Source: an uncultured Spirochaetia bacterium
GTDB lineage: Bacteria; Desulfobacterota_D; UBA1144; Nemesobacterales; CSP1-2
Reading direction: 5' to 3'
Assembly (NCBI GenBank): GCA_964389705.1
Contig: CAYMEO010000005.1
Coordinates: 1 to 51,217 of the forward strand
Length of the DNA: 51,217 nt
Position numbers and translations under genes: made by a program. Within the stretch, counting starts at the first letter, position 1. Every line of letters starts with the position of its first letter. The notes beneath the pieces are model-generated. The model searched no databases and was not told the DNA's origin. It worked only from the letters and a program-made list of their open reading frames with translations. Below are positions 12,938 through 39,140 of the stretch, piece after piece.

Positions 12938-13132
12938 TTGTGTACCCCTGACATTGTATTATAAGATGTAAGGGACTAAACTTATTCTTCTTTGGGACCC
13001 ATATAATAATCTGAGTAGAGAACTGAGTTATTTCTCCGTGCTAATTACGTACTCCAATTTATTCATATAGAGCGGAAAACAAGTATTAATCCCTAGCCAA
13101 GACATTTATAAATCCCCATTGGGTATGCTTCC

Positions 13133-13162
13133 GCAACTCACTTACATAAAAAAGTGAGTTGC
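13133..13162. other. Perfect 11-bp inverted repeat (hairpin) in the 468-bp intergenic region
   Basis: GCAACTCACTT-acataaaa-AAGTGAGTTGC; no U-tract on either strand. Confidence 0.7.
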
Positions 13163-13197
13163 ACATTGGTAGTTTAGATGATATTTATATGTGCCCT

Positions 13198-13280
13198 AGA
13201 GACTAAATTCAATAGGACTTTAGAATGATTAATTGAAATAAAAAAGCCCTATTTATTACCTAACGTATAACTTTAGTCCA
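13198..13280. promoter_or_regulatory. Cluster of three degenerate GACT-WW-AGTC boxes
   Basis: GACTAAATTC (13201), GACTTTAGAA (13216) and AACTTTAGTC (13269); a further GGGACTAAAC at 12972. Confidence 0.5.
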
Positions 13281-13405
13281 TATTAGATGAACAATGGTCT
13301 ACTCTAGAAAAAAATCAGAATACAGGCAGGCTCTCTGAATCGGATACAGCCGTTGGCAAAGCTCACCTCATTAGAGTCAATATAACCAAACGACAGCTCA
13401 ATCAC

Positions 13406-14092
13406 CTAGTCTGTAAATCCATTCCGAAAACCGTAGAGTATAAGTTCAGACCTATTTTTCACAGAGAGCTTCTTAAAGATTTTATATAGGTGAAATTTCA
13501 CAGTCTTTTCACTTAAGAAAAGATTTTTTGCTATATCCTTATTGCTACAGCCACTCAAAACCAATTTTACAACCTTCGTCTCAGTTTCAGTGAGATCATA
13601 TATAGACTTACTCCCCTTGGCTCCCCTACGCGGGGATGAAAAGGCTTCTAAAACTTTTATCATCATCTTTCTTTCCACCCATAGCTCCCCGTCGTTTACA
13701 GCCTTAACTGCCTTTATAAGCCGAGAGGAATCCGCGTTTTTCAGCAAATATCCCCTTACACCAGAACGAATGGCATTTATAAGCATATTTTCATTGTAGT
13801 CGCTATTTACAATTAGAATTACCTTAGTAGCCTTATTCTTTCTAAGTATTTGGAGAATCCTTGAGAGATTTAAACCCTGCAGATCAATATCAAGAAGCAA
13901 AATGTCAAAATTGAGTCCTTCACACACTTGAACAAGATCGAGTACATTGGAAACCTTGGACACTACCTGTATGGTTTTATCACTTTCAAGTATCTTACAA
14001 ACTCCTTCTACTAAGAGTGGGTAATAACAAGCTAATACTACACGTAAGGTCCCATCACTTTTCTTCGATTGGCTTCCATTTTGCATGGCCAT
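13406..14092 (-). CDS. NarL/LuxR-family regulator with atypical receiver domain (VpsT/CsgD-like)
   Basis: REC domain (LLLD, GYLLKN; acidic pair replaced by ACYY) plus a C-terminal LuxR HTH (LTETETKVVKLVLSGCSNKDIAKNLFLSEKTVKFHLYKIFKKL). Strong RBS GGAGG. Confidence 0.9.
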   Translation of the reverse strand: MAMQNGSQSKKSDGTLRVVLACYYPLLVEGVCKILESDKTIQVVSKVSNVLDLVQVCEGLNFDILLLDIDLQGLNLSRILQILRKNKATKVILIVNSDYNENMLINAIRSGVRGYLLKNADSSRLIKAVKAVNDGELWVERKMMIKVLEAFSSPRRGAKGSKSIYDLTETETKVVKLVLSGCSNKDIAKNLFLSEKTVKFHLYKIFKKLSVKNRSELILYGFRNGFTD

Positions 14093-14114
14093 ATCACCCT
14101 CCTTCCCCTTTTTA

Positions 14115-14123
14115 CAACCGCCT
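14115..14123 (-). promoter_or_regulatory. ops-like element (AGGCGGTTG) in the leader of the LuxR-type gene
   Basis: GGCGGTTG versus the RfaH ops core GGCGGTAG; lies just downstream of the NusG paralogue and upstream of the RBS. Short, so it may be chance. Confidence 0.3.
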
Positions 14124-14212
14124 GTCGCAATTCATACTACAGATGAGACAGAGCAGCTTGAGATAAGTATTTACTGCTGTTGATCATCGCTGTTTTTCAA
14201 CCCCATCCAGCC

Positions 14213-14743
14213 CTACAGCGGCTCCATATCAAGAACATTAACCTCTACAGAAACAGACTTTTTTATAAGGTCTATAGACAATACAAACCTGTGTTTTGAG
14301 CGTTTCTCCATAATCCTACCGATTACCCCCTGTAGAGGACCACTTTTTATCAAGACTTCCCTTCCTCTGTCGAGGTAAGGATATGGATCATACTTTAGCT
14401 TGCTTTGAACAAGCGTCCTTATGGCCTCCACTTGCTCAGCGGGCACAGGCACAGGGGTACCATTACACCCCACTACTTTCAAGACCCCCTTTGTATACAT
14501 AACCCTATGTATATCTCCAAGGCCTACATTTACAAAAACATAAGAGGGAAAAAGGGGAACGTTTATAGTTTTATTACGGTCCTTCCATCTAGATACAATC
14601 TCCCTTAGAGGAAGAAAGGTTGTAACGCCTCGATTCTTCAAGTTTATTTCTGCTACCTTCTCATGTCGGCTCTTAGTATAAACAGCATACCACTCTTTTC
14701 CATTGGATAAGTCATCAACAACCGCTGATATGTCAAACGACAT
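14213..14743 (-). CDS. UpxY/RfaH-type NusG paralogue (transcription antiterminator)
   Basis: WYAVYTKSRHEK...FLPL...PLFPSYVFV NGN domain and KOW motif GREVLIKSGPLQGVIG; heads a polysaccharide operon. Confidence 0.9.
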   Translation of the reverse strand: MSFDISAVVDDLSNGKEWYAVYTKSRHEKVAEINLKNRGVTTFLPLREIVSRWKDRNKTINVPLFPSYVFVNVGLGDIHRVMYTKGVLKVVGCNGTPVPVPAEQVEAIRTLVQSKLKYDPYPYLDRGREVLIKSGPLQGVIGRIMEKRSKHRFVLSIDLIKKSVSVEVNVLDMEPL

Positions 14744-14793
14744 ATAACTAATTCTCCCCGAGTTAAGAATTTATTCCTTAATACTAATGCCTA

Positions 14794-14860
14794 ATTAAAA
14801 TGCAAATGGCGCCAAAAGTCAATAAGACTTTAGTTATACCCCGCTACTAGGCTAAAGTTA
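14794..14860 (-). promoter_or_regulatory. sigma70-type promoter of the NusG paralogue with two upstream boxes
   Basis: Minus strand TTGACT (14822-14817)-N17-TTTAAT (14799-14794). Boxes AACTAAAGTC (14835-14826) and AACTTTAGCC (14859-14850) are spaced 24 bp apart. Confidence 0.6.
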
Positions 14861-14873
14861 TAAGAAATCCGAC

Positions 14874-15980: not shown

Positions 15981-16059
15981 AATATTAGAAGTTTTAATCC
16001 CGAGTCTCAGGCAAAGTCAAGGTATTATTTATTCCTTTCTCCAAAGAGCAAATTACAAA

Positions 16060-16983: not shown

Positions 16984-17110
16984 AGCCCGAATAATATAGG
17001 AGAAAACTAGGTATTAAATAATACTATGCTACAAATGATTGTTAAGAGGACAACAATCGGCCTTTCCCCTAGAATAGGAAAAGGTTTGGGTAAGTGAGTG
17101 GAGCTTCTCA

Positions 17111-17138
17111 TTGACTTGACTGACACCCAAGGTAAAAT
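17111..17138 (+). promoter_or_regulatory. Putative sigma70 promoter of the ABC ATPase (likely leaderless transcript)
   Basis: TTGACT (17111)-N16-TAAAAT (17133-17138), with the GTG start 7 nt after the -10 and no SD. Confidence 0.45.
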
Positions 17139-17145
17139 CCCCTAA

Positions 17146-18453: not shown

Positions 18454-18513
18454 CCGCACTAAAAATTTAAATTCCCTAATATTATATATTAAGGATATTA
18501 TAAGGGCTCAAAC

Positions 18514-20244: not shown

Positions 20245-20307
20245 CCCTTTAGTGGATCAGTGCTCGATAAAACGAGGTATTCAGGATAAGAAATAGAGAT
20301 GAGAATA

Positions 20308-25561: not shown

Positions 25562-25653
25562 CTTCGGTAACCCAGCCGCCATAGATTGCCCGCGCAATCT
25601 TTAGGCCGAAGGTTTTGCGCCCCATCCTTTTGGATGGTTTGCCTTTGTCGGTT
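25562..25653 (-). ncRNA. c-di-GMP-I (GEMM-I) riboswitch aptamer
   Basis: Minus strand reads ACCGACAAAGGCAAACCAUCC-AAAA-GGAUGGGGCGCAAAACCUUCGGCCUAAAGAUUGC-GCGG-GCAAUCUAUGGCGGCUGGGUUACCGAAG. It aligns position by position to the GEMM-I consensus (GGCAAACC, CGCAAA, CCUAA/UAUGG receptor, GGGUUACCGA). Confidence 0.9.
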
Positions 25654-25812
25654 AGAGACAACCATCTTGTAATTGTGTAATTCAGATACCTTTATGCACA
25701 AGGCTTTTCTATTTATTACACAAGAATAATCTATTGTCAAATAAGCTTTCTAAATTTTGGATATATTCTGAATCATTGCCATTCTCTTAGTGTAATGCAC
25801 TATTGGATTAAT

Positions 25813-28117: not shown

Positions 28118-28127
28118 AGAGATTGAC

Positions 28128-29045
28128 TTATCTCCAAATATATTCCAGTCGCTTCTTGATTCGGCTAAGTCGGTATAAAATGGGGTGGTTATATGGCCAA
28201 AATCCTTTTTGAAGAGCCTGCCAGACCTCCTCGTCCCGAATTCCCTGTTTGGATAAATACTCCGTCATCCAGTTTAAAAAATTCAAGTGCTCCGGGTTTG
28301 GCCGTGAGAGTTGGAGTTGCCCTGTTCTCTCAGCAACAGAGCAGCATGAATCCGGGTGCTGACGATACCTATCCCAACATTCACTGGATACATACACCGG
28401 CACCCTGAGATACACCTTAGCAAAAAATGCCCTGTCCTCAAACAACCCCCTAAAGATATCTTCAAATCCACCCACCTCATCAAACACCCTGCGCCTTATT
28501 AGGACACTACAAGTGGCAGGCGCATTCGCTCTGTTTTGCAATAAAAGCGTGAGCAATTGGGGCGGTTGGTAAAGCGTATTGGGCAGAACCCCGATTTCCC
28601 GCACCGAGTCACTTTGGCTATCTTCCGAATTACCTGTCCAGCTGTACCAATATTGAGTAGATCCAAAAACCATGCCGGCCACAGGATAAGAATCTAGAAT
28701 CACTGCCTGCTGCTCCAGTTTGTGTGGCAGCCAAACGTCATCGGCATCTAAGAAGGCGATGTATTCCCCCCTGGCATTACTGATGCCCAAATTACGCGAA
28801 GCGCTCATGCCCTGATTTTGATGACCATCATGTTTAAGATAACGAACCTTCTTGGGATATTGCCTAGCATACCCTAGCGCAATTTCAGTGCTACCGTCGG
28901 TTGAACCATCATCTACAAGCAAAAGTTCCCACTCGTCATAGGTCTGGGCAAAGACGCTCTCGATAGCCTCCTGTATAAACTTCCCGGCGTTTAAAAATAT
29001 AGTGATGACTGAGACCAGCGGCTGTCTAATAATCGTATCAACCAT
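28128..29045 (-). CDS. Glycosyltransferase family 2 (paralogue 3 of 3)
   Basis: PLVSVITIFLN...VDDGSTD...FLDADDVW. Start set at 29045 (SD AGGTGG; ATGGTTGA overlap with the deacetylase stop) rather than the track's 29231. Confidence 0.88.
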   Translation of the reverse strand: MVDTIIRQPLVSVITIFLNAGKFIQEAIESVFAQTYDEWELLLVDDGSTDGSTEIALGYARQYPKKVRYLKHDGHQNQGMSASRNLGISNARGEYIAFLDADDVWLPHKLEQQAVILDSYPVAGMVFGSTQYWYSWTGNSEDSQSDSVREIGVLPNTLYQPPQLLTLLLQNRANAPATCSVLIRRRVFDEVGGFEDIFRGLFEDRAFFAKVYLRVPVYVSSECWDRYRQHPDSCCSVAERTGQLQLSRPNPEHLNFLNWMTEYLSKQGIRDEEVWQALQKGFWPYNHPILYRLSRIKKRLEYIWR

Positions 29046-30072
29046 GGAACCACCTAAGTAAACGCTTCCCAAATTCGTCTCCATTCCAATCCTCCACTTG
29101 AACACGAGGTAGCTGAAAACAGTCAGTATGTCGCCAGACGGTTTCTTTAACGGTAGTGCAGGCACATGCAAATCCCGCCTCTTGAACGAGGCCGATCGTC
29201 TCCGGTGTGTAATCCCCGTACGGATATGCAAAACTACTTACCGGACACCCCAGCAAGTCCTCTAATTGGGCTTTATTCCGCTGGATTTCATATTGCTGAA
29301 AAGCAACAGGATGTTCAGAAAGACAAGGATGAGTTATTGTATGTGCGCCAATCTCGATTAGCCCACACCTATGAAGCATTGATAGCTCCTCATCCATAAG
29401 AGGACGATGAGTCGGACGGGCTATGGGTTGAGTTCCAGCCCATGCCGTTATTTCATCCAACACCTCTTGTTGCTCGTCCAGCCGCAAAGGCTGCAGTAGT
29501 TGCCAAAGTGCCCAATAGAGGAAATGCCGAGAACCTTCCTTTCCCTCCCATGGTTTCAGGCCAAGATGGCGTATGTAGTCATCTTCGCTGTAATAGGCTG
29601 CTTCGTCTAACTCCCACCTATGGGTATTACCCCTAATAGTTAGGCAAAGCGTTTGCGGTAGTGTGCCGGGTTGCAAGAGGAGTCCTTCCAATTCATCCCA
29701 CCAGAATTCGCGGGCCCGCCCAATATACCCAGTTGTTATAAAAACCGTTGCAGGTATTCCGTAGCGCTCCAGTAATGGTTTTGCATTATGCAGGTTATCT
29801 GCGTAGCCATCATCAAACGTAATGGTCACTGCGTGGTGCGGGATCTTCCCGTCTTGACACTTTTGAACTAATTGATGCAACGGCATAGGGAAGCAATACT
29901 TTTGTAACACCTCTAATTGCTCAGCAAAGTATTCCGGTGTCACACACAAAGACCAAGGGTCTGATCGCCAATTATTTACACTGTGGTACATCAGGATGAG
30001 TCCATTCGGTGCAAATCGTTTCTTAATCCGCCGTACCGTTCCTCGAAAGCGGTTGATTCCTGGTATCTTCAT
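29038..30072 (-). CDS. CE4/NodB polysaccharide deacetylase (IcaB/PgaB-like motif order)
   Basis: LMYHSV, ITFDDGY, GAHTITH, FAYPYG. Start set at ATG 30072 (SD GGAG) rather than 30159. Confidence 0.9.
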   Translation of the reverse strand: MKIPGINRFRGTVRRIKKRFAPNGLILMYHSVNNWRSDPWSLCVTPEYFAEQLEVLQKYCFPMPLHQLVQKCQDGKIPHHAVTITFDDGYADNLHNAKPLLERYGIPATVFITTGYIGRAREFWWDELEGLLLQPGTLPQTLCLTIRGNTHRWELDEAAYYSEDDYIRHLGLKPWEGKEGSRHFLYWALWQLLQPLRLDEQQEVLDEITAWAGTQPIARPTHRPLMDEELSMLHRCGLIEIGAHTITHPCLSEHPVAFQQYEIQRNKAQLEDLLGCPVSSFAYPYGDYTPETIGLVQEAGFACACTTVKETVWRHTDCFQLPRVQVEDWNGDEFGKRLLRWFHG

Positions 30073-30096
30073 ATTATCTCCACAGTTGTAATGTTG

Positions 30097-30136
30097 ATTA
30101 TAAATTGGCAGTTTGACACTCTCCTGACTAAAGTCA
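30097..30136 (-). promoter_or_regulatory. Putative activator-dependent promoter: perfect -10 plus a palindromic box abutting -35
   Basis: TATAAT at 30102-30097; no -35 consensus at N17 (AGGAGA); TGACT-TT-AGTCA palindrome at 30136-30125, centred near -40.5. Confidence 0.55.
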
Positions 30137-30314
30137 AGGAGATTCCCAGGCAACCTCAAAATAGTTTGAGGTTAGCGCCTGACGGTTGTGCCCCAACCGA
30201 TTGTTTCATATTCTATTAAGTTTAGCTTTCTGTATCTCCGAGTTAAAACTCTGGAGTTTTAGAAAACAGGATTCTGATAAGATGGTGTTTGGGTACCTTT
30301 CATAAAAGGGAACC

Positions 30315-32003
30315 TTAAAAAAGCAGTCGCGGTATCTCCTCATCAGATTTTATAGTCACTAGTTTTTGCTCACGTATAAGCCTTTGCCCCATATTTATAA
30401 GAAACTCTTTAAACCTCTTTCGACGCGACTCAGGGTCGGTTCTGATTATTTTAATCGCGATGTGCACAGGCCGCATTCTCAACACAAGCCAAAGAAAACG
30501 CATCAATAGCAGCGGTTCGCGCAGTAGGCCGTCCCGCAACTGCCAGCGTAGCACCGGCACGAGAAGACCAGCCAATTCTAAGGGAATACGCAAGGGTTGA
30601 TTCTCTTGTGTCAATCGGCGAATTCGTATATGCAACAACGTATTATCGCGCGGCAACCTGATTCGAAAATAAACCAACATGAGTGGCAAGGCGAGATCAT
30701 TCTCAATGGCTTCTGCAATAGCCTTTTTGGATACGACCTCTTGAAAGGCAGACAGCCGAATCGAGCCTATATACTGCCCCATGGATTCAACCGCACAAAT
30801 TAGCTGCTCAACACCCTCCTGTACCTTCACATCCTCGATGGGAAAGTCAATATTTATGCGAACCTTGTGCGTAGTTCCGATGGTAATTGGCTGTTTGAGA
30901 TCCGCTATATTGGCGATCAATCGCTCGATGTGGAGGATAGTCTGTTTAGCCAAATCCGCTACTTGTGACTGAGCTTCTAACGCTGAAAGAAAGGCATTGA
31001 GCCGTATCGCTAAAGTTGGCCATAGTATTGGCCAATCTTTAGATGTGCAATTGGCAGCAAGGGGTATGTATTTGAAAAGGCATGTGGCAACTTCGAGGGG
31101 ATTGAGGTTTGGAGCACGCACCTTCTCAAGGAATTGTAGCAGTGGTCTGGCATCCTCACCTCGGACGATTTTATGACTGACAGGCCACAAGGAGTGTCGG
31201 TAAAATTCCTCGGATAGACCATTAGAGGACAGACCATTGGCATAATCAGGGTGTGGGAATCGAACCCGGGGATCCCGGTCATGTCCACGCCGAATAACAG
31301 TCAGTCCATCGACGAGGATGCGTTCGGCATTCGAAGAGGCAGAGCCCGGTCGCATTCGGTAATATGCCAACACTTCAGGTATGTTACCGAATCGGGCACC
31401 TGTGCGTGCAACGCGCTGCCAAAAGTCCCAATCCGCACAGGTAACAAGACCTGTATCGAATTCTCCGATCTCCTGTACCAGTGAGCGCCGCACTACACAG
31501 TTAAGGAGAGCAAAAGGGCAATCCTTAACAAACTCTGGGAAGAGATTACTTAGTAGCGATTGTGTATAGACTGATGCGGGACCGTACTGGCCGGACGGCG
31601 TTACTCGAACGCAACCGCATACCACAGCGTCGAGCTTAGGGTCTTTTGCAATTTGTTTCGCCATACGTTCAAGGTACTGCGGAGCAAGCCAATCGTCTGA
31701 ATCGAGAAAAACCAACCAGTCGTTTCTTGCGGCTCGAATACCTGTATTTCGTGCAGCACTCTCTCCGCCATTACTCTGACGAATCACGCGGAATCGGTTA
31801 TCTCTTTGAGCCCAACTGTAGGCGATGGTTGCAGTGCTGTCTGTTGAGCCGTCATCGACAATGATCGCCTCCCACATTGGAAAGGTCTGGGTTCTTAAGC
31901 TGGCAAGGGTCTCATCCAGCGTATCTGCAGCATTATACGCAGGTACAACTACAGAAAAATGGATTTTAGACATTTTTCTTTTGAATTTTGACAGCACTTG
32001 CAT
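30315..32003 (-). CDS. Glycosyltransferase family 2 with long C-terminal extension
   Basis: FSVVVPAYN, VDDGSTD, FLDSDDW, CADWDFW. Alternative start at 31973. Confidence 0.88.
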   Translation of the reverse strand: MQVLSKFKRKMSKIHFSVVVPAYNAADTLDETLASLRTQTFPMWEAIIVDDGSTDSTATIAYSWAQRDNRFRVIRQSNGGESAARNTGIRAARNDWLVFLDSDDWLAPQYLERMAKQIAKDPKLDAVVCGCVRVTPSGQYGPASVYTQSLLSNLFPEFVKDCPFALLNCVVRRSLVQEIGEFDTGLVTCADWDFWQRVARTGARFGNIPEVLAYYRMRPGSASSNAERILVDGLTVIRRGHDRDPRVRFPHPDYANGLSSNGLSEEFYRHSLWPVSHKIVRGEDARPLLQFLEKVRAPNLNPLEVATCLFKYIPLAANCTSKDWPILWPTLAIRLNAFLSALEAQSQVADLAKQTILHIERLIANIADLKQPITIGTTHKVRINIDFPIEDVKVQEGVEQLICAVESMGQYIGSIRLSAFQEVVSKKAIAEAIENDLALPLMLVYFRIRLPRDNTLLHIRIRRLTQENQPLRIPLELAGLLVPVLRWQLRDGLLREPLLLMRFLWLVLRMRPVHIAIKIIRTDPESRRKRFKEFLINMGQRLIREQKLVTIKSDEEIPRLLF

Positions 32004-33792
32004 AAAACCCCTTCATATACCTTCTGTTCTTAGGATCGGTCTTAGCTCTGTACTCTCTAATTGTAATTGCTAGTTTCAGACACAACCGCTTTAGAGGTGA
32101 ACGTATTCCAATTGAAGAAATAATTGTTTGTCCGGCCATGGCGAGTTTCCAACGGAGCCTCCATCCCACATCAGACCTCAGAATCTCGATCCTTGGAATC
32201 TGATAAGGATTTTGAAAGGGCATCACGCAACCGGCTGTTACTGTAAACGCAGCCTGTATGCCAGCTTCCTGTACAGCTTTTTCCACCCTCTCGTCACTTT
32301 CACCGTGGGGATAGGCAAAAAGCCGTGGTCGCGGTAGCCCAATTGTTTCTAGATCTGTTAGCGACCCCCCCACTTCTTCGGCCAATTCTTCAGTCGGGAC
32401 CTGGGTGAGAGGGCGATGTGTCTTAGAATGAGAGCCAATCTCAACTCCCCCGGCTGATAATTCCTTCAGGCCGTTGGCATCGAGCAATCGAATTTGCTTA
32501 GCCCCAATCATTTTATCCCAGTCATTCATTTCACCCAAACGTCCACTTACGGCAAAAGCGACCGCCGGTATGCCCTGCTTCTTAAGTATAGGCAACGCGA
32601 CCTTTAAGATGTCCTCAAAACAGTCATCGAATGTTAGCAATAATGGTTTTCGCGGCAGACCACCATTTCCATTTAAAAAACGCAAAAACTCATCAGTTGT
32701 TACAAATCTATAGCCGGACTTTTGAAGTGTATCTATCTGCCGGAGAAACAACCCTTCTGGTACCCCGTATTGCTCGAGTATAGAACATCCCGAGAGATCC
32801 GATATCGAGTGATAGGCTAAGACCCTTAGGGGCTGAGGTTTCGGTATCCCTCCGGCCTCACGCACTCCACGCCAGTATTCCAAGTCCCGCCCCCGGAAAA
32901 ACAACCTCGTTGTGATAGCGTTTTGAATCCCCATATTTACTAGAGCGAGCAAGAGCCAAGATGTCAGACGCCACAAGACCCGCTCGATTAAGGACCCGGC
33001 AGGGTGGGCTGCAAAGATATCATTGATAAGATCGGGGTGCTTCCGTACAAGAGCTATATCTGCACGCCCCGCCTGTCGCCACTGGCGCAGGTAATCAATC
33101 GGGGTAACTACGTACTTCTGCCAGCTAATGGCATTTGGGTTGAAGACGATACGATATCCTTTGAGTTTGAGACGGTAGCAAAAATCGAGGTCCTCATCCC
33201 CAAACGAGCCATTGCGGTTGAAATTTGTGTCGAACCCACCGAGCTTATGAAAGACCTCAAATGATAAGGAAGCCTGTCCGGTAATCATATCATGAATGGT
33301 CGGGGTTGCATTTGGAGACGACAGCCGCTTAACCCTTTTCTCAGCCCAAATGCCGACCCCGACGCTCAGGAAGTTTGAAGGCGATTCGGGATGCAATGGA
33401 ATGTGTCCAAGAACAATATCAGCTCCCTCTCGGTGAGACCGGTTGTGCTCTGCCAAGAGACGTGGATGGGCTTCCATGTCGTCGTCCAGAAAGAGTAAAA
33501 TTTCCCCATGAGCAACATCGGCACCACGGTTCAGAGCCGTAGCCCTACCCTTGTTTTGTTGTTCAATCACCGTCATGGGAAAGGGGACATTGATTTCTCG
33601 GAGGGCTTGGGCTGTGCCGTCTGTTGAGCCGTCCACCACCACAATGACCTCGAAGTGGCCGTCAAATTCCTGTCTTACCAAAGAACGCACCGATGCCAAT
33701 ACAAGCTCTCGCCTTTGGTAGGTTGGAATAATTACACTAAATCTCACAGATTTGTCTTTACTAATATCCCGCATCAATCTGAGATCATTCAT
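31966..33792 (-). CDS. GT2 - CE4 polysaccharide deacetylase fusion protein
   Basis: N-terminal GT2 (SVIIPTYQR, VDGSTD, FLDDDM, DEDLDF); C-terminal CE4 (LAYHSI, LTFDDC, GSHSKTH, FAYPHG). Confidence 0.9.
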   Translation of the reverse strand: MNDLRLMRDISKDKSVRFSVIIPTYQRRELVLASVRSLVRQEFDGHFEVIVVVDGSTDGTAQALREINVPFPMTVIEQQNKGRATALNRGADVAHGEILLFLDDDMEAHPRLLAEHNRSHREGADIVLGHIPLHPESPSNFLSVGVGIWAEKRVKRLSSPNATPTIHDMITGQASLSFEVFHKLGGFDTNFNRNGSFGDEDLDFCYRLKLKGYRIVFNPNAISWQKYVVTPIDYLRQWRQAGRADIALVRKHPDLINDIFAAHPAGSLIERVLWRLTSWLLLALVNMGIQNAITTRLFFRGRDLEYWRGVREAGGIPKPQPLRVLAYHSISDLSGCSILEQYGVPEGLFLRQIDTLQKSGYRFVTTDEFLRFLNGNGGLPRKPLLLTFDDCFEDILKVALPILKKQGIPAVAFAVSGRLGEMNDWDKMIGAKQIRLLDANGLKELSAGGVEIGSHSKTHRPLTQVPTEELAEEVGGSLTDLETIGLPRPRLFAYPHGESDERVEKAVQEAGIQAAFTVTAGCVMPFQNPYQIPRIEILRSDVGWRLRWKLAMAGQTIISSIGIRSPLKRLCLKLAITIREYRAKTDPKNRRYMKGFYASAVKIQKKNV

Positions 33793-33811
33793 AACCCTGG
33801 AATTTCATTAG

Positions 33812-34576
33812 TTACCTTCTTTGATCATAAATTAACAACGGCTTAACGGCCCTCACCGTGATTAAGACCTCATAAGCAGGGTCATAGAAATCGAGCTCTT
33901 CCTGACAAAATTCTCTAGCTGCAAGCCCCTGCAGAAACGCGATTGCCGACAGCACATTCCCATAGGCTTCTACCTTAACATTATCTGCTGGGAAAAATTC
34001 CTCAAACAGCCGTCGCGATGATAGGCTCGTGAAACTCCAACACTGATAATCACCCCACTTGTCGCTTGCAATCTGGCTGATGCCTGAAAATGTGGCTAGC
34101 ACCACCCCACCTGGTTTCAAAATACGGTAGATTGTCCCGATAGCAGCTTTCACATCATAGATAAATTGGAGCGTCTGCGTCAGTATTAAACAGTCGAATG
34201 TATCCGATGGTATGTGGTAGGCTTTTGTCAGGTCACCGACGAATGTGGCAATTGGATTCCCTTCAGAAATATGAAGTACATCTCTGGTATTTACCCTATC
34301 TCCGCCAAATCGCTTGGTATATGAATCGTCTCCAATCTCTAGCACACGTCCTCTAATATCATCGGCATGCCGGGCGAGAAAATTCTCGATGTAGTAGCGG
34401 TCAATAGGCAGACCGCGATCAAATCCAAACTCACGGCTGATTGGTGTTACCCGTCGTAGGCTACCAAAATCCACTGTTCCAACCGGATAACGATACGCCT
34501 GCCATTGACTTCTTAACCAGCGCCATTGATTTTCCAACCAGCGCTGTGTACGTGTTGCTAATTTGTGGTACCCCAT
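33812..34576 (-). CDS. Class I SAM-dependent methyltransferase-like protein
   Basis: FGFDRGLPIDRYYIE, VLEIGD, FDCLILTQTL, RILKPGGVVL. Confidence 0.8.
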   Translation of the reverse strand: MGYHKLATRTQRWLENQWRWLRSQWQAYRYPVGTVDFGSLRRVTPISREFGFDRGLPIDRYYIENFLARHADDIRGRVLEIGDDSYTKRFGGDRVNTRDVLHISEGNPIATFVGDLTKAYHIPSDTFDCLILTQTLQFIYDVKAAIGTIYRILKPGGVVLATFSGISQIASDKWGDYQCWSFTSLSSRRLFEEFFPADNVKVEAYGNVLSAIAFLQGLAAREFCQEELDFYDPAYEVLITVRAVKPLLIYDQRR

Positions 34577-34623
34577 CAGTCAAGATAGTCTTTATACACA
34601 GAATAATTTCGCGATACCAACAT

Positions 34624-35562
34624 CTAAGACTCCGTGAGCAATGTCCTCACTGCTCGCTTCACTGGTTTTTTTATTTGTTCAACGAGATTACCGGGGAGTT
34701 TTGACAACCTGTACAGGTGCGGATGCTGGTATGGCCAGAAAGCCCTTCGCAGTGCCTTCCAGATATTGATGTCTCTAATCTCTTGTTCAGTCAGATATGC
34801 CTCCAGCCATTTTAGAAAAAACAGTCTAATCTCATCATGGAATTGACTCGTCCTCGCCATACAGGAGTATGGATGTATTCTATATCGGTCCCAACACTCG
34901 CCAGCTGCAAACACAGGCGCACTGAGATACACCTTGATCAAAAACGCTTGATCTTCGTATAATTGGTACATACCCCGAAAGTCTTCTTCAAATCCTCCTA
35001 TATTTTCCACAGTCTCACGACGCAACAGTATATTAGAGGGGCAAGGAGCGGTACCTTCTCCTAATGGGTGGCAGAGAATGGCCAACTTTGGCGGATTGAA
35101 CACGGTATTGGTCTGAACACCAAGTTCTGGTATAAAGTCTCGTTTAGCATCTTCGGGTTTACCTGTCCAGCTATTCCAATATTCACTGGCTCCATAGACC
35201 ATAGCGACTTCGGGATGTGAACCTATGATTTCCACTTGTCGCTCCAGTTTATGTGATAACCAGACATCATCGGCGTCTAAAATAGCGATATACTCACCTT
35301 TAGAATAGCGAATACCTAGATTGCGTGAAACGCATACCCCGTGATTCTGATGCCCCTCGTGTTCGAGATAGTGAATCTTTCCGGGATACAGTTCAGCATA
35401 CCGTCGGGCAATTGATGTGCTCCCATCATCTGATCCGTCATCTACTAGGAGTAGTTCCCAGTATTCGTAAGTCTGTGCAAGCACACTCTCAATGGTTTCT
35501 TTTATGAACCTTTCGGCATTCAAGAAGCTAACAATAACAGAGACAAGGGGTTTTCTATTCAT
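34624..35562 (-). CDS. Glycosyltransferase family 2 (paralogue 2 of 3)
   Basis: PLVSVIVSFLN...VDDGSDD...ILDADDVW...YEDQAF. Confidence 0.9.
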   Translation of the reverse strand: MNRKPLVSVIVSFLNAERFIKETIESVLAQTYEYWELLLVDDGSDDGSTSIARRYAELYPGKIHYLEHEGHQNHGVCVSRNLGIRYSKGEYIAILDADDVWLSHKLERQVEIIGSHPEVAMVYGASEYWNSWTGKPEDAKRDFIPELGVQTNTVFNPPKLAILCHPLGEGTAPCPSNILLRRETVENIGGFEEDFRGMYQLYEDQAFLIKVYLSAPVFAAGECWDRYRIHPYSCMARTSQFHDEIRLFFLKWLEAYLTEQEIRDINIWKALRRAFWPYQHPHLYRLSKLPGNLVEQIKKPVKRAVRTLLTES

Positions 35563-35674
35563 ATCTATAAGAAGAGAATTAAATTGAAAAGCCCATTAAA
35601 GCTACCGGATTATAGAACAATTATATTCCGGAGCCATCTAGCAAACATACACAATCTTTAGATCTTAAGTACCC

Positions 35675-36661
35675 TTATTTAAATGCCTGCCATACCGTTC
35701 GTAGCCAGCACCTAAGAGAAATGGGTAACGTCCGCTTCGCTATAAAAATCATTAGCCCGTGCCACTGGATCGGATTGAAAAAATGGCGGTAAATTTCTAA
35801 CAAACGATTTAGAGTCGGATAACGATAGGGCCATTTGGCCTTTCGAAGAGATTTCCATACCTCAGGATCCTTTACCCCCTGTTTTGATAAATACTCCTCT
35901 ACCCAGTTCAAATAAAATAAGCGATCAGCGTAAAATCGTCCCTCTTCCCATGAAATGTCAGTGTAAGAATCCCAATGACTCCTATATCTATACCAACACT
36001 CACTAGACACAAACACTGCCGAAGTAAGGCATATCTTGACGAGAACAACGGCATCCTCATACATACCACGAAAAACCTCTTCATATCCGCCTACACTTTC
36101 TAATACATTACGTCGTACCATTATACCGCCAGGTATGAAAAATTCGTCCCGTAGGAATAGGTTAAGCAACGCCGGTGGCTTAACTAGCGAGTTACTGTAC
36201 GGATGCACACCATTACGATTTACACCCATGAGATGGTCACGCTTATTATACTCAGGATTACCCAGCCAACTGTACCATACCTGAAGAGGTCCATAAACCA
36301 TGGCGGCTTCAGGTTGTGATTCCAGAATTGCCACCTGTTGTTCTAATTTGTGGGGTAACCAGACATCATCACCATCCAAGAAGGATATGTACTCGCCCTT
36401 GGCATTATGAAAACCCAAATTGCGTGAAGCACTCATGCCGAGATTTCGATGGCCATCATGCTCCAGATAACGCACTTTTTCAGGGTATTTCTCTGCATAA
36501 CGTCTAGCAATTGCAGTGCTACTGTCTGTTGAGCCGTCATCCACAAGCAAAAGTTCCCAATTGTCATAAGTCTGTGCGAATACACTCTCTATGGCTTCCT
36601 GTATGAACTTCTCCTCATTCAGAAAAATAATAATTGCAGATACTAACGGCTTGATGCTCAT
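35675..36661 (-). CDS. Glycosyltransferase family 2 (paralogue 1 of 3)
   Basis: PLVSAIIIFLN...VDDGSTD...FLDGDDVW...YEDAVV. Confidence 0.9.
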   Translation of the reverse strand: MSIKPLVSAIIIFLNEEKFIQEAIESVFAQTYDNWELLLVDDGSTDSSTAIARRYAEKYPEKVRYLEHDGHRNLGMSASRNLGFHNAKGEYISFLDGDDVWLPHKLEQQVAILESQPEAAMVYGPLQVWYSWLGNPEYNKRDHLMGVNRNGVHPYSNSLVKPPALLNLFLRDEFFIPGGIMVRRNVLESVGGYEEVFRGMYEDAVVLVKICLTSAVFVSSECWYRYRSHWDSYTDISWEEGRFYADRLFYLNWVEEYLSKQGVKDPEVWKSLRKAKWPYRYPTLNRLLEIYRHFFNPIQWHGLMIFIAKRTLPISLRCWLRTVWQAFK

Positions 36662-36708
36662 CTCGTCTCACTAGAACTAAAATGCCACTTGGGACTCGGC
36701 CTCTATAG

Positions 36709-38028
36709 TTAAAGATCGCCGACTTTGAATTCATTTAAGCGTGATTGGGTAGTCCATTTTAACATTGGTCTCACAATACCCCCCATATCTCCGGCATAAT
36801 CACCGCGTGCTGAATCTCCATCAAAATTGTCGATAACCTGAAAAGCAACTGCATCGCATTCATCAAATTGAGGGATAACAGGGTCAATCGTATCGAGACC
36901 AGCATGGACAAAAAACATTCCCTCAGAGAGTAGATTGCCGGGAATCCATACTGTGCTCACATATAAACCTTTCGGACGAGGTCGCCGCCGCCAAGTCGGG
37001 TCGAGATCGTGAGATACAAAGACAAGCACACCTTCTTCATTGTAAAAGGCAAAATGCGGCATAAGCGCATAACCAGGCTTGAGAACTTCATATTCCATCT
37101 CAACTCTGAGGGATTGCCTGATATCAACTGCGTCAATTATATGCCCCTCCTCTGACCTCACCCGTACAGCATGTAAACGAACGATTTCGCCTTGGGGCGA
37201 CTTATCACGGTCGGGCCATATTCGCTCGGCAGTCGTACTGATTCCTGAACTCAAGTACAAGCTGACAACTCGATGAGATGGTCCGTCTTCTAAGATTCTG
37301 CCCTCTTTAATGAGGATTGCTCTTTCACAAAGACGAGTAATAGCAGCCATACTGTGTGATACAAACAACACCGTCCGCCCTTCCTTAGCCACGTCACCCA
37401 TTTTTCCCAGGCACTTCTTCTGAAACGCGGCATCCCCTACTGCCAAGACTTCATCCACAATCAGAATCTCCGGCTCTAGGTGAGCCGCTACAGCAAAGGC
37501 CAGGCGTACGTACATGCCGCTAGAATAGTGTTTTACCGGTGTATCCAGGAATCTCTCAACCTCAGAGAAGGCTACGATCTCATCGAACCTGCGGTCAATC
37601 TCTGCCTTCTTCATACCGAGTACGGCGCCACTCAGATATATGTTTTCCTTTCCTGTTAGCTCAGAGTGGAAACCGATGCCGACTTCAAGGAGTGAACCTA
37701 CCCTGCCATAAATGTCGGCGTAACCCTCTGTTGGCTCGGTGATACGGGCGAGGATTTTGAGTAATGTGCTCTTACCAGCGCCGTTAGATCCAATGATGCC
37801 GACAACCTCACCACGCTTAACCTCGAATGAGACGTCTTTTAATGCCCAGATGATGCCATTGGGCTGCTCATTGCCGATTGCTGATTGCCCATTTACGAAT
37901 TGCGAAAGCCATCGGAAAGGGGTATACACCGCCTCGGATAATGCGTCGCGCAAGGCATTGTAGCGCTTGGGCTGTCCGATGCGGTATTGCTTACCCAGAT
38001 TTTCAGCACGAATAGCAATGTTGCCCAT
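36709..38028 (-). CDS. wzt: Polysaccharide ABC exporter ATP-binding subunit with C-terminal Wzt-C domain
   Basis: GSNGAGKS, YSSGMYVRLAF, IVDEVLAVGD, VSH, then a ~170-aa beta-rich C-terminal domain. Start set at 38028 (MGNIAIRAENLGK), since the track's 38220 overlaps wzm. Confidence 0.92.
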   Translation of the reverse strand: MGNIAIRAENLGKQYRIGQPKRYNALRDALSEAVYTPFRWLSQFVNGQSAIGNEQPNGIIWALKDVSFEVKRGEVVGIIGSNGAGKSTLLKILARITEPTEGYADIYGRVGSLLEVGIGFHSELTGKENIYLSGAVLGMKKAEIDRRFDEIVAFSEVERFLDTPVKHYSSGMYVRLAFAVAAHLEPEILIVDEVLAVGDAAFQKKCLGKMGDVAKEGRTVLFVSHSMAAITRLCERAILIKEGRILEDGPSHRVVSLYLSSGISTTAERIWPDRDKSPQGEIVRLHAVRVRSEEGHIIDAVDIRQSLRVEMEYEVLKPGYALMPHFAFYNEEGVLVFVSHDLDPTWRRRPRPKGLYVSTVWIPGNLLSEGMFFVHAGLDTIDPVIPQFDECDAVAFQVIDNFDGDSARGDYAGDMGGIVRPMLKWTTQSRLNEFKVGDL

Positions 38029-38033
38029 CGCCC

Positions 38034-38864
38034 TTACAGTATATCCGCAAATGTTCTCTCCATACGCCGAAAGTACAGAAGGCCCCCAACAAGGAGTACA
38101 GTGACTGCCAGTACCGAAACAGCCATTGGCATCCCTATCCCTCCGCCTTTGCCCAACAAGGCCCAGCGGAACCCTTCCACCACCCCAGCCATAGGGTTTA
38201 ACCCGTATAAAATACGCCATGCCTCAGGCACCAGGCTGCTGGGGTAGGCAACGGGTGTTACGAAGAGCCAGAACTGTGTCAGAAAAGGTATCGTGTAGTG
38301 CACGTCGCGGTACTGCACATTTAGGGCTGACAGCCATAAGCCCACAGCCAGAGCCGTAGCAATAGCAAACAGTATGATAAATGGCAGCGCCAGAGCAGCC
38401 GTTGTTGGAACAACGCCGTAGTAGAACATCATACCAAGCAAAACCAAGAATGATATACCGAAATCGACTAACCCAGCCAGTACTGCCGATATGGGAATGA
38501 CCAGGCGCGGGAAATAAACCTTTGTTATAAGTCCCTGGTTCGACACCAGACTGTTTCCAGATGTAGTTAATGCATTGGTAAAGAGCTGCCACGGGAGAAG
38601 CGCACAGTATGCAAAAATCGGATACGGAATTCCATCGGATGGTACCTTAGCCAACTTTCCAAAGAAGATGCTGAATACAACCATTGTCATAAAAGGCTGC
38701 AGAATTGCCCATGTAACACCGAGTACTGTTTGTTTGTAGCGCACCTTCATATCGCGCCAGACTAGGAAATATAGGAGCTCACGGTATTCCCACAGGTCTT
38801 TGAGCCTGAGTGATACCCAACCACGCGATGGGCGAATAGTCAAATGAGGCACTGTCTCAAGCAC
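38034..38864 (-). CDS. wzm: Polysaccharide ABC-2 exporter permease
   Basis: RDMKVRYKQTVLG, LITKVYFPR, TPVAYP, LNPMAGVVEGFR. Confidence 0.92.
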   Translation of the reverse strand: MLETVPHLTIRPSRGWVSLRLKDLWEYRELLYFLVWRDMKVRYKQTVLGVTWAILQPFMTMVVFSIFFGKLAKVPSDGIPYPIFAYCALLPWQLFTNALTTSGNSLVSNQGLITKVYFPRLVIPISAVLAGLVDFGISFLVLLGMMFYYGVVPTTAALALPFIILFAIATALAVGLWLSALNVQYRDVHYTIPFLTQFWLFVTPVAYPSSLVPEAWRILYGLNPMAGVVEGFRWALLGKGGGIGMPMAVSVLAVTVLLVGGLLYFRRMERTFADIL

Positions 38865-39070
38865 GGCTGCTTCCTTCCGAATATATAAATTCAGGGATTC
38901 AAATCTACAAGATATCAGTCCTTATCTTTACAGATAACTCTCGCTTGATTAGAGATATTTTGCCTAATCTAATAGGCTTTAACTAATGGTTTTGGTCTTT
39001 CAATATTTTATATAGCTCCGCCTTCTAACTTACAGACAAAGTAATATACTACTTGTCAAATAGAAAAAAA

Positions 39071-39140
39071 TCAGACTTTGGTTTGATTTTTTGAATGAAA
39101 AAGGTACTAAAGCCAGAGAAAATATTAAGACTTTAGATTA
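39071..39140. promoter_or_regulatory. Three degenerate GACT-WW-AGTC boxes upstream of wzm
   Basis: TCAGACTTTGGTTTGA (39071), TACTAAAGCC (39105) and AGACTTTAGATT (39128); a TTGACA lies on the minus strand at 39059-39054. Confidence 0.45.

Follow-up and report, generated by a model that had tools for sequence, protein, structure and literature searches.

Does a recurrent short palindrome join two physically separated blocks of glycan genes, and the gene of a nearby LuxR-type protein, into one regulon? A sequence-only reading of the window (the whole stretch of 51,217 nucleotides analysed here, part of the genome of an uncultured Candidatus Dadabacteria member) had proposed so and had listed ten boxes, and all ten coordinates carry the sequences given for them. 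Our analysis suggests that the palindrome, refined here to the 10-bp RACTWWAGTY, is most likely the binding site of the local VpsT-like LuxR regulator, and it partly confirms the list: the box is genuine at three promoters, not at all ten coordinates, with 14826, 14850, 13216, 13269, 39074 and 39129 conserved, 39105 a possible half-site, 12972 and 13201 falling away, and 30125 lacking comparative support.

Frequency and conservation of the box

When all DNA of the window is counted, GACTWWAGTC with up to two mismatches is found 68 times against 66 expected, and with up to one mismatch seven times against 4.8. Intergenic DNA holds 19 matches where 9.3 are expected (P ~0.002 in a post hoc test); GACTTTAG ranks about ninth among the intergenic 8-mers. 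Enrichment from a single window is weak evidence, and it is the comparison with relatives that decides the matter. A weight matrix built from orthologs only has its three best window matches (at least 12 bits) at 13269, 14826 and 30126, all intergenic, and the housekeeping promoters of the window (secG, tpi, pgk, def, copA and others) carry no such box module.

Tandem boxes lie upstream of the LuxR-encoding operon in 11 of the 14 related Candidatus Dadabacteria loci compared, most of which were gathered with the LuxR protein as search anchor, which biases the association of box and LuxR gene. It is very improbable that the boxes are not protein-specific and reflect AT-rich upstream promoter features or conservation by descent alone. 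The chance-level frequency in the whole window, the equal enrichment of other intergenic 8-mers and the conservation of entire intergenic regions in the closest relatives (~88% protein identity) would suit such a reading, but in relatives with 60-70% protein identity the flanks have diverged whereas the box cores, the 2-3 bp gap to the -35 and the 53-bp spacing are kept. Moreover, the same design is found at non-homologous promoters (ugd, wzm and L083 genes), and the invariant positions are C and G amid AT-rich surroundings.

Promoters of the regulator and glycan operons

The regulator operon comprises the following features:

14850-14859, minus strand: distal box, AACTTTAGCC on the transcribed strand, centre ~-67.5
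14826-14835, minus strand: proximal box, AACTAAAGTC, ending 3 bp before the -35, centre ~-43.5
14794-14822, minus strand: inferred promoter, -35 TTGACT (14817-14822), 17-nt spacer, -10-like TTTAAT (14794-14799)
14213-14743, minus strand: UpxY-family specialised NusG paralog, putative processive antiterminator, first gene of the operon
13406-14092, minus strand: LuxR/GerE-type regulator with an atypical receiver (Pfam GerE 9e-19, Response_reg 3e-13), proposed box binder

The tandem boxes stand by a TTGACT in the window, L002-L006 and L012, the proximal box ending 2-3 bp before this -35 and the distal one kept 23-24 bp upstream of its partner; the 24-bp spacing of 14826 and 14850 remarked on earlier is thus shared by relatives, and the position of 14826 at -43.5 relative to the hexamers was likewise correctly read. 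In L008-L011, which lack the NusG paralog and have the LuxR gene first, the boxes take the form TACTWWAGTA (the distal one being TACTTTAGTA in L008, L009 and L011); L007 has one doubtful box only, and L014 (37% identity) has no boxes. Across the 11 promoters of alignment A1, at a mean column identity of 61%, the core A, C, A, G and T columns of the proximal box and the TTGA of the -35 are invariant, and the copy at 14826 scores 13.7 bits with the ortholog-only matrix. A third box-like sequence lies directly downstream of the -10 in L005, L006, L008, L009, L011 and L012.

The comparison supports the view that the box accompanies the LuxR gene across Dadabacteria, including genomes without the NusG paralog, and what would link box and protein is this genomic association. 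Alternatively, the boxes may be real operators bound by a factor encoded elsewhere, with the LuxR operon merely another of its targets, which we regard as unlikely. The LuxR-anchored collection of loci inflates the association, and a 10-bp ACT..AGT palindrome is low in information (at most ~14 bits), such that other helix-turn-helix families could fit it. Against a foreign factor, the box pair stays upstream of the LuxR operon despite differing neighbours and with or without the NusG paralog, the box fits the T-box consensus of VpsT, the closest solved relative, and the window encodes no DNA-binding protein besides the regulator.

For the glycan operons the comparison is alignment A2: its 12 promoters, of three operon types (receiver-glmS, ugd and wzm), come from seven genomes and line up in the same succession of blocks, from the distal box through middle block, proximal box, -35 and -10 to the leader motif. 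This promoter design is also present in L013 and L083, and the composite pattern gives 36 matches in 307 kb against 8.7 in shuffles. For the receiver-glmS-ugd operon (glycan operon 1) the features are:

13269-13278, minus strand: distal box, GACTAAAGTT, centre ~-96.5
13216-13225, minus strand: proximal box, TTCTAAAGTC, 3 bp before the -35, centre ~-43.5
13184-13212, minus strand: inferred promoter, -35 TTGAAT (13207-13212), 17-nt spacer, -10-like TATAAA (13184-13189)
13127-13162, minus strand: ops-like leader element, an 11-bp RNA hairpin GCAACTCACTT / AAGTGAGTTGC running into GCGGAAGC
12972-12983, minus strand: box-like sequence in the 5' leader, directly upstream of the ribosome-binding site of the receiver gene
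12500-12937, minus strand: receiver-only paralog (Pfam Response_reg), first gene of the operon

The distal box lies 53 bp upstream of the proximal one, start to start, in the window, L002-L006, L092 and L093; the proximal box is kept as WWCYAAAGTC followed by 3 nt and TTGAWT in L002-L006, and the promoter elements coincide with conserved blocks of A2. The sequence at 13201 was rejected as a separate box, as it consists of the -35 hexamer plus spacer of this promoter, and 12972, ~205 nt into the leader, is probably not a box either: L003, the relative with 88% identity, is alone in keeping it, and L004-L006 lack it. The receiver-only paralog is 36-40% identical to the N-terminal receiver domain of the regulator, has a C-terminal W-x-x-R-K-M-M helix in common with it and is kept at the same position in L003-L006 and L013.

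At the wzm-wzt glycosyltransferase operon the corresponding features are:

39129-39138, minus strand: distal box, ATCTAAAGTC, centre ~-97.5
39105-39114, minus strand: middle block, GGCTTTAGTA, possible degenerate half-site
39074-39083, minus strand: proximal box, AACCAAAGTC, 3 bp before a weak -35
39015-39070, minus strand: inferred promoter and leader, -35-like TTTTTT (39065-39070), 16-nt spacer, -10 TATATT (39043-39048)
39015-39034, minus strand: ops-like leader of wzm, TGTAAGTTAGAAGGCGGAGC

Counterparts of the distal box are GACTAAAGTC in L085, GTCTAAAGTC in L087 and AACAAAAGTT in L086 and L090, and those of the proximal box are AACCGAAGTC, AACCAAAGTC and GACAAAAGTC, respectively; the start-to-start distance between the two is 55 bp in the window, 53 bp in L085 and L087, and 54 bp in L086 and L090. 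The conserved pair is formed by 39129 and 39074, at 53-55 bp, and not by the 24-bp pair of 39105 and 39129 that had been pointed out earlier. Of these four relatives, L090 alone has a full box (GACTATAGTA) where the middle block lies, L085, L086 and L087 having none; in A2, 39105 aligns with A-R-K-R-C-Y-T-T-T, a weakly conserved block that all 12 promoters possess.

Sequences, their conservation and their positions relative to the conserved hexamers are direct observations, as are the domains found in the proteins. A consensus promoter scanner made no call at any of the three box promoters, at the regulator operon because the -10 lacks an A at position 2, and the -10 elements TTTAAT and TATAAA are unusual; therefore, we infer positions relative to the transcription start within 2-3 nt, and these could shift by a few nucleotides.

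Taken together, the promoters suggest that the two glycan operons and their regulator operon follow one design with two RACTWWAGTY boxes upstream; the regulator operon sets the partner box 23-24 bp beyond the proximal one, and in the glycan operons this distance is ~53 bp (five helical turns). The 13406-14092 protein would bind each box as a dimer and, from about -43, would recruit RNA polymerase to promoters with a poor -35 or -10, activating its own operon (positive autoregulation) as well as both glycan operons; the proximal box at ~-43 by the weak wzm -35 fits an activator. The earlier proposal of one autoregulating protein coupling two clusters is partly supported, by comparative inference, in that the regulator promoter and both glycan head promoters share the box; it finds no support at 30125.

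The direction of regulation may of course differ, and the LuxR protein might bind the boxes mainly as a repressor or anti-silencer instead of a class II-type activator. VpsT displaces H-NS at several promoters and represses others (PMC8754643), the good TTGACT -35 of the regulator promoter might need no activation, and the third box-like sequence past the -10 in the six loci named above would suit repression. We nevertheless hold this to be quite unlikely, given that the proximal box abuts the -35 without overlap at a fixed 2-3 bp spacer, that the wzm -35s of the window and its relatives are very poor (TTTTTT, TTTTCT, TTTGTT), as in activator-dependent promoters, and that DevR, an activator, has the same kind of tandem phased layout.

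The perfect palindrome at 30125

One further palindrome lies inside glycan operon 2:

30125-30136, no strand assigned: solitary palindrome TGACTAAAGTCA, 22 nt upstream of TATAAT (30097-30102)

It is the single perfect copy in the window, where ~0.03-0.04 are expected, has the highest weight-matrix score (14.2 bits), is identical in the same-species contig L082 and is indeed centred at -40.5 relative to the TATAAT, as had been stated. As the flagship operator of the earlier proposal, it finds no comparative support and shows no feature of the conserved design, and we consider it probably outside the conserved system. A partner box is missing at both 23-24 and 53 bp, as is an ops-like leader, and the palindrome stands 3 bp nearer to the -10 than all conserved proximal boxes.

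For this site we lean slightly towards the reading that it is not an operator, but one stem-loop of a hairpin-rich 163-bp insert that resembles the box by chance, the insert possibly being a mobile-element remnant or an intercistronic RNA structure. L085, the nearest relative that has this gene cluster, lacks the segment holding it (~30114-30276) but keeps the flanks plus a -10-like CATAAT, and in L083 and L086 no box is found upstream of the deacetylase gene. The palindrome extends to CTCCTTGACTTTAGTCAGGAG and forms the hairpin CUCCUUGACUUUAGUCAGGAG. Folding of the intergenic RNA gives z = -3.98 and several further hairpins; these observations, along with the missing partner box and leader and the shift towards the -10, favour a chance resemblance. 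Against it stand the low expectation for a perfect copy, the rank of the site as the best ortholog-matrix match in 51 kb, its intergenic location, its plausible activator distance from a perfect TATAAT and the finding that the segment is not repeated elsewhere in the sequences examined.

The regulator and its closest known counterparts

In the receiver domain of the regulator, C-Y takes the place of the acidic pair (VVLACYYP), and Asp68 is present in the window protein and replaced by Gly or Ser in two orthologs. No kinase gene lies near the regulator, and, since the receiver lacks the acidic pair for phosphotransfer, the protein is probably not controlled by a conventional histidine kinase, a likeness to both VpsT and CsgD. 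Orthologs keep the recognition helix SEKTVKFHLYKIFKKL almost unchanged, two distant homologs differing by one or two conservative substitutions, and we match this constancy to the invariant ACT..AGT core of the box; the type of box suits a GerE/NarL-family helix-turn-helix dimer, as was supposed earlier.

Among solved structures, the C-terminal half matches VpsT best (E = 1.5e-16); this biofilm-matrix regulator of Vibrio cholerae has the same LuxR/GerE helix-turn-helix and a receiver-like domain without normal phosphotransfer chemistry. RACTWWAGTY fits the VpsT T-box consensus WRCYWWRGYW, including the key positions C-3 and G+3, and both are 10-bp palindromes (PMC8754643). Some VpsT promoters also have two boxes, and exopolysaccharide operons would be the targets in both systems. 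However, overall identity is low, with the C-terminal half alone aligning well, and the boxes described here are far less degenerate and hold fixed promoter-proximal positions, whereas VpsT, from a different phylum, counteracts H-NS and often has its sites far upstream. The 2010 VpsT structure paper reportedly defined a four-residue c-di-GMP motif, W[FLM][TS]R; at its position WVER of the regulator aligns with WLTR of VpsT, and the acidic Glu in place of Thr/Ser makes a VpsT-like mode of c-di-GMP binding doubtful. Glycan block 2 contains a c-di-GMP-I riboswitch (25563-25653), scoring 71 bits where the cutoff is 35, which shows c-di-GMP signalling to be at work here, again as with VpsT. The earlier idea that c-di-GMP may act on the regulator is a reasonable one.

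The previously drawn analogy with DosR holds for the ACT/AGT core and the tandem layout. DevR/DosR of Mycobacterium tuberculosis belongs to the NarL/LuxR family, its half-site (GGGACT) contains the ACT core, it requires two or more phased boxes, the proximal of them at -42.5 and their helical phase being important, and DevR controls its own expression (PMC3177182). The analogy fails for the GGG flanks, as Dev boxes are 18-20 bp long with an essential G triplet outside the ACT core that is missing here; their spacing is 21 bp versus 23-24 or 53 bp, and DevR has cognate kinases and is phosphorylated in the manner of a conventional response regulator, in contrast to a protein without acidic pair or nearby kinase. 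VpsT is the closer counterpart. LiaR, VraR and CesR, also of the NarL family, recognise inverted repeats of the ACT-N-AGT type in front of operons that are autoregulated, and when the full-length regulator is compared with solved structures, VraR is among its best matches; unlike the kinase-less protein with its atypical receiver and putative glycan operon targets, they receive their phosphate from the adjacent kinases LiaS/VraS and have envelope-stress genes under their control.

A NusG paralog and ops-like leaders

A putative second regulatory layer, absent from the sequence-only reading, consists of the UpxY-family NusG paralog and the ops-like leaders. The paralog matches Pfam NusG (E = 1.5e-21) and passes the NCBIfam antiterm_UpxY cutoff (124.7 bits against 100), falling under the RfaH, LoaP and NusG cutoffs. 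Like RfaH/ops and the Bacteroides UpxY/opsX systems, the locus ties a specialised NusG paralog to long polysaccharide operons. UpxY is the first gene of each capsule operon, acts on its own leader and is paired with the inhibitor UpxZ; here, there is a single paralog, placed apart in the regulator operon, and no gene resembling UpxZ was identified; the protein would act in trans on two or three operons, similarly to RfaH.

Co-transcription of the paralog with the regulator, along with the leaders, suggests that initiation control is combined with antitermination: at the ops-like leaders, after initiation, the paralog would be loaded onto polymerase paused there and keep it transcribing through operons of 11 kb and 18 kb. 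On balance, we find it fairly probable that the whole model holds, comprising the shared promoter design, LuxR activation of three operons and UpxY-type antitermination.

Both glycan leaders carry an ops-like TGTAAGT..GCGGA(A)GC; TGTAAGTNA..GCGGA(N)GC has exactly two copies in the window, where 0 are expected, both of them downstream of box promoters, and at the wzm operon GGCGGAGC is invariant in L085, L086, L087 and L090. The GCGG(N)AGC of the leaders, comparable to E. coli GCGGTAGC and Bacteroides YGCGNAGCR, agrees with the non-template hairpins of RfaH and UpxY, and the element of operon 1 directly follows an RNA hairpin, as in opsX (PMC11685472). This hairpin is predicted in the window, L002-L004 and L006, and more weakly in L005 and L013, with differing stems (CACTT/AAGTG versus CACCC/GGGTG), and L013 carries GCGGTAGC, identical to the E. 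coli ops hairpin.

Gene layout and motif counts in the window

The window has a G+C content of about 43%, and nearly all of its genes lie on the minus strand.

Gene order in the window, from Pfam and NCBIfam scans; transcription runs toward decreasing coordinates
39944-39240, minus strand: nth-like gene
39239-38865: intergenic region before wzm
38864-20308, minus strand: glycan block 2 (wzm, wzt, many GT2/GT4 glycosyltransferases, a methyltransferase and deacetylases)
Between glycan block 2 and the radical-SAM gene, plus strand: ABC transporter
Radical-SAM gene followed by dprA (dprA at 15980-14874), minus strand
14873-14744: intergenic region between dprA and the NusG paralog gene
14743-14213, minus strand: UpxY-family NusG paralog
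14092-13406, minus strand: LuxR-type regulator, 228 aa
468 bp: intergenic region between luxR and the receiver gene
12937-12500, minus strand: receiver-only protein, first gene of glycan block 1
Down to 1932, minus strand: remainder of glycan block 1 (glmS, ugd, PMT_2, methyltransferases, GT1, epimerase)

In the segments 464-1931 (1468 bp) and 48908-49789 (882 bp), no ORF reached 100 aa, and neither a tRNA nor an Rfam match passing the gathering threshold was found. The Wzm ORF, as called from the GTG at 38864, encodes 276 aa, compared with 282-297 aa in most Wzm homologs, and the true start codon may differ from this mechanical call (window 38864-38912).

The sequence-only reading proposed that a recurrent palindrome, here the 10-bp box RACTWWAGTY, marks promoters in both glycan blocks, and listed ten copies (12972, 13201, 13216, 13269, 14826, 14850, 30125, 39073, 39105 and 39129). 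All ten positions carry the sequences reported for them. The expected excess over background was found only in part: intergenic DNA (6.7 kb in total) contained 19 matches against 9.3 expected, a twofold excess (P ~0.002) in a test picked after the data had been seen, whereas over the whole window the 10-mer occurs at chance frequency (68 observed and 66 expected with up to two mismatches; 7 and 4.8 with up to one), and whole-window enrichment of GACTWWAGTC was rejected as support. An unbiased ranking of intergenic 8-mers, in which GACTTTAG came approximately ninth, did not single out the box either and was likewise set aside. Counts inside the window alone do not establish a motif, and it was the comparison with relatives that decided the question.

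We therefore rely on orthologous sequences. A symmetrised weight matrix, derived from 31 ortholog boxes and leaving out all window sequence, gave its best three window matches (at least 12 bits) at 13269, 14826 and 30126, all of them intergenic; weaker matches fell at both coding and intergenic positions. In the Dadabacteria loci, the composite pattern of a box, 2-3 nt and a TT-rich -35 occurred 36 times as compared to 8.7 in shuffles, a fourfold excess that is due to the true modules, and a metagenome scan with a strict version of this pattern retrieved two more promoters of close relatives and one spurious match. A simple sigma-70 consensus scanner called none of the proposed box promoters; hence, the promoters are assigned by their conserved hexamers only, and the box positions are given relative to these inferred hexamers.

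Box modules at the regulator and glycan promoters

Twelve orthologous loci were taken with 10-kb flanks, and synteny was determined by tblastn; most of the loci used throughout were gathered with the LuxR protein as the anchor. The common gene order in L002-L006 is radical-SAM, dprA, nusG paralog, luxR, receiver, glmS and ugd. Upstream of the nusG paralog, these five loci and the window share tatAACTTTAGYC, 13-14 nt, AACTAAAGTC, 2-3 nt, TTGACT, 17 nt and TTTAAT. In L008-L012, which lack the NusG paralog, the promoter leads straight into the LuxR gene and keeps the same layout, with TACTTTAGTA and WACTAAAGTA boxes and the TTGACT retained. An alignment of these regulator-operon promoters (11 sequences, 61% mean column identity) has the box cores and TTGA as its invariant columns. 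Since the layout persists where the NusG paralog is absent, the box pair tracks the LuxR gene rather than the NusG paralog, which is our main argument for autoregulation. The boxes were also considered as a target of the NusG paralog itself, and this was rejected because their place ahead of the -35 puts them outside the region that these promoters transcribe. No boxes were found in L014, a further LuxR-homolog locus, and only one unclear box in L007; among the more distant acidobacterial homologs (~32% identity), a core-like 8-mer was present upstream in 7 of 67, too few to be informative.

A third box-like sequence (AACTTTAGTT, TACTATAGTA or AACTAAGGTT) was observed just past the -10 of the regulator promoter in L005, L006, L008, L009, L011 and L012. 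It falls on the site where transcription of the regulator operon is expected to begin, has a degenerate form in the window (~14775-14790), and could serve autorepression at high regulator levels.

The promoter of glycan block 1 is located in the gap between luxR and the receiver gene: the window and L002-L006 share GACTAAAGTT, 43 nt, WWCYAAAGTC, 3 nt, TTGAWT, 17 nt and a TATAAA-like hexamer, and in each of the six the two boxes start exactly 53 bp apart. An additional copy of this design precedes ugd in L004 and L005, another lies upstream of the second luxR-receiver-glmS unit in L013, and the strict composite pattern located it on two metagenome contigs, one of which carries a LuxR ortholog directly upstream.

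For glycan block 2, contigs were fetched via Wzm homologs. One of them, L085, contains the same gene cluster with a Wzm 93% identical to that of the window; L086, L087 and L090 are less closely related. Each of the four carries a distal box upstream of wzm (GACTAAAGTC, GTCTAAAGTC, AACAAAAGTT) and a proximal one (AACCGAAGTC, AACCAAAGTC, GACAAAAGTC), spaced by 53-54 bp as compared to 55 bp in the window; the proximal box is followed by 3 nt, a weak -35, 16-17 nt and a good -10. Two box modules also occur within the related glycan cluster of another organism (L083), and no boxes were seen at L088 and L091, two unrelated Wzm loci. The copy at 39105, which had been listed as a box, has a full-box counterpart in L090 (GACTATAGTA) and none in L085, L086 or L087; it lines up with a middle block, weakly conserved, that is common to all twelve glycan-type promoters compared (receiver-glmS, ugd and wzm). 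Upstream of wzm in L085 (1813-2586), the promoter module is present in two tandem copies, the first with a degenerate proximal box and a GGCGGAGC leader, the second with perfect boxes and no GGCGGAGC.

Taken together, six of the ten listed copies proved to be real and a seventh, 39105, is a half-site. The best-supported reading, which we consider somewhat more probable than not, is that the local LuxR-type regulator autoregulates and couples both glycan blocks.

The perfect palindrome at 30125

The copy at 30125 is the best match to the ortholog matrix in the window, and only ~0.03-0.04 perfect copies are expected by chance. Unlike every conserved module, it is solitary, lacking both a partner box (23-24 or 53 bp upstream) and an ops-like leader; its centre lies at -40.5, without a -35 and 3 bp nearer to the -10 than in the conserved modules. 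The site is internal to the second operon, between a GT2 gene and a deacetylase gene, and falls inside a 163-bp segment (~30114-30276) that is missing from the syntenic L085, which retains both flanks and a -10-like CATAAT. L082, a contig of the same species, is identical here and hence uninformative, and beyond it the deacetylase homologs are at most 63% identical (about 60% for the nearest) and largely cyanobacterial (Nostoc, Gloeocapsopsis). Footprinting through these homologs revealed no box in L083 or L086 and the loss of the whole segment in L085, and no other copies of the segment were found among the window and relatives' sequences searched.

The palindrome extends to CTCCTTGACTTTAGTCAGGAG, and the 242-nt intergenic RNA around it folds far better than its shuffles (z = -3.98), with several other hairpins. 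The segment is also rich in inverted repeats, namely AAAACTCCAGAGTTTT, GGTTGGGGCACAACC and CCTCAAActatTTTGAGG in addition to the palindrome. The site may be a recently acquired operator; a structural or inserted element appears more likely. It illustrates that the most conspicuous copy of a motif, here the perfect palindrome, may also be the one to trust least.

The regulator and a possible second layer of control

The closest relatives of the regulator among species-representative genomes come from Candidatus Dadabacteria MAGs (58-88% identity), some of which are labeled Thermodesulfobacteriota or Deltaproteobacteria, and the protein was also found on a Logan metagenome contig. To our knowledge, no member of this phylum has been cultured, and no transcription factor regulon has been described for it. 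The regulator combines a receiver fold (PF00072, 3e-13) with a GerE/LuxR helix-turn-helix (PF00196, E = 9e-19, residues 167-219) and matches NarL, VraR, DevR and related proteins over its full length among solved structures. Its recognition helix SEKTVKFHLYKIFKKL is nearly invariant across 14 orthologs. A complete phosphoacceptor pocket is absent: the acidic pair is replaced by C-Y (VVLACYYP, as compared to IDDHP in NarL), and Asp68 and Lys are present in the window protein, with the Asp changed to Gly in L010 and to Ser in L013b. Scanning of 40 window ORFs against Pfam detected neither HisKA nor HATPase_c. Given the missing acidic pair, the loss of Asp in two orthologs and the lack of a kinase gene in the window, we regard the protein as an atypical response regulator that is probably independent of phosphorylation.

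The C-terminal half of the regulator has its best solved-structure match in VpsT (E = 1.5e-16). The VpsT structure reportedly places the c-di-GMP motif W[F/L/M][T/S]R where the helix after the receiver domain begins. The regulator segment GELWVERK aligns with DEMWLTRK of VpsT, keeping Trp and Arg and having Val at position 2 and Glu at position 3; the orthologs all read W[VAL]ER, except for WIER in the L013b paralog. The Glu at the third position makes the VpsT mode of ligand binding doubtful, and an assignment as a c-di-GMP-binding VpsT-type protein was rejected since the regulator departs from W[FLM][TS]R.

The genome-wide consensus of VpsT, whose dimerisation and DNA binding require c-di-GMP, is the 10-bp palindrome WRCYWWRGYW with critical C-3 and G+3 (PMC8754643), and RACTWWAGTY agrees with it at every specified position, as a fit of sequence only. 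DevR obligatorily uses tandem phased boxes, the proximal one at -42.5, with an ACT core in the half-site (PMC3177182); the three window promoters and their orthologs share this layout, with a proximal box at approximately -42.5 to -43.5 and a distal one. However, the 18-20 bp DevR/DosR box has an essential G triplet (GGGACT half-site), whereas the window boxes are flanked by A/T-rich sequence (tatAACTAAAGTCtta) that shows no conserved G triplet, and a DosR-type assignment was rejected on this ground. Among known systems, VpsT and its T-box come closest, combined with a tandem architecture like that of DevR and a second layer resembling RfaH/UpxY.

This second layer is suggested by the gene upstream of luxR, which scores 124.7 bits with NF033644 (antiterm_UpxY; cutoff 100) and below the cutoffs for RfaH, LoaP and housekeeping NusG. 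Downstream of both glycan promoters, the window has a leader motif, TGTAAGTNA..GCGGA(N)GC, whose only two copies are at 13127-13146 and 39015-39034, with 0 copies expected. It is retained in orthologous leaders, including those of the ugd promoters of L004 and L005, and its carriers besides the window are L002-L005, L013, L083, L084 and L087. At glycan operon 1, the motif forms the 3' arm and tail of a predicted 11-bp RNA hairpin (within 13127-13162), whose stem varies by genome (CACTT/AAGTG in the window, CTCAC/GTGAG in L004, CACCC/GGGTG in L006) and appears to be maintained by compensating changes; the hairpin comes from single-sequence folds, and RNAalifold, run on a MAFFT alignment with a misaligned 5' arm, gave only a small GC-GGAA-GC stem. 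In the opsX sites of Bacteroides, a pause hairpin is joined to YGCGNAGCR (PMC11685472; PMC5995543). The window motif resembles the non-template hairpins of RfaH ops and Bacteroides opsX, and GCGGTAGC of L013 exactly matches the hairpin present in every E. coli ops site. We consider the motif a likely target of the NusG paralog (14213-14743), which, produced along with the activator, would most naturally keep the polymerase processive through the 11-kb and 18-kb operons. Unlike UpxY, whose gene leads the operon under its control and is paired with a UpxZ inhibitor, the paralog heads a separate two-gene operon with the LuxR-type regulator, not UpxZ, as its second gene; the leader of this operon has no ops-like motif. 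This putative pairing of an ops-like element and a UpxY-family NusG paralog lies outside Bacteroidota and Proteobacteria.

The receiver-only protein (12500-12937, minus strand) is a paralog of the N-terminal domain of the regulator (36-40% identity) with the same W-x-x-R-K-M-M helix, and its gene opens the box-linked glycan operon in the window as well as in L003-L006 and L013. A role as a decoy partner for the regulator is conceivable; speculatively, the shared helix would allow heterodimers and negative feedback.

Within glycan block 2, we found a full-length c-di-GMP-I riboswitch (RF01051, 25563-25653, minus strand; 71.1 bits against a gathering threshold of 35, E = 4.7e-12), approximately 105 nt upstream of a 541-aa ORF without a Pfam family (25457-23832). 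A TTGACA hexamer lies upstream of it near 25735, and no box precedes it. The riboswitch indicates that c-di-GMP does act at the locus, so that the suggestion of the sequence-only reading that c-di-GMP acts on the LuxR-type protein is still alive, though unproven.

These elements would fit a three-part master switch for surface glycans in Dadabacteria, a scheme that we regard as unlikely in its entirety. A phosphorylation-independent, ligand-gated and self-activating VpsT-like LuxR activator would read T-box-like palindromes at fixed class II-like positions; the receiver-only paralog would pair with it via the W-x-x-R-K-M-M helix and titrate it, providing built-in negative feedback; and the trans-acting NusG paralog, co-transcribed with the activator, would read the ops-like leaders. 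If true, then together with the riboswitch of the second operon, c-di-GMP or a related signal would act on initiation, elongation and internal attenuation of one pathway. The parts are new to an unstudied phylum but of known kinds. The regulatory map, comprising the box, three promoters of fixed geometry and a candidate VpsT-like regulator with an atypical receiver, is concrete, and its parts are small and testable in E. coli or in vitro.

Finally, the G+C content is 47-49% across glycan block 2 (~28000-38000) as compared to 38-44% in the rest of the window, which, along with the largely cyanobacterial deacetylase homologs, suggests horizontal acquisition of part of this block.
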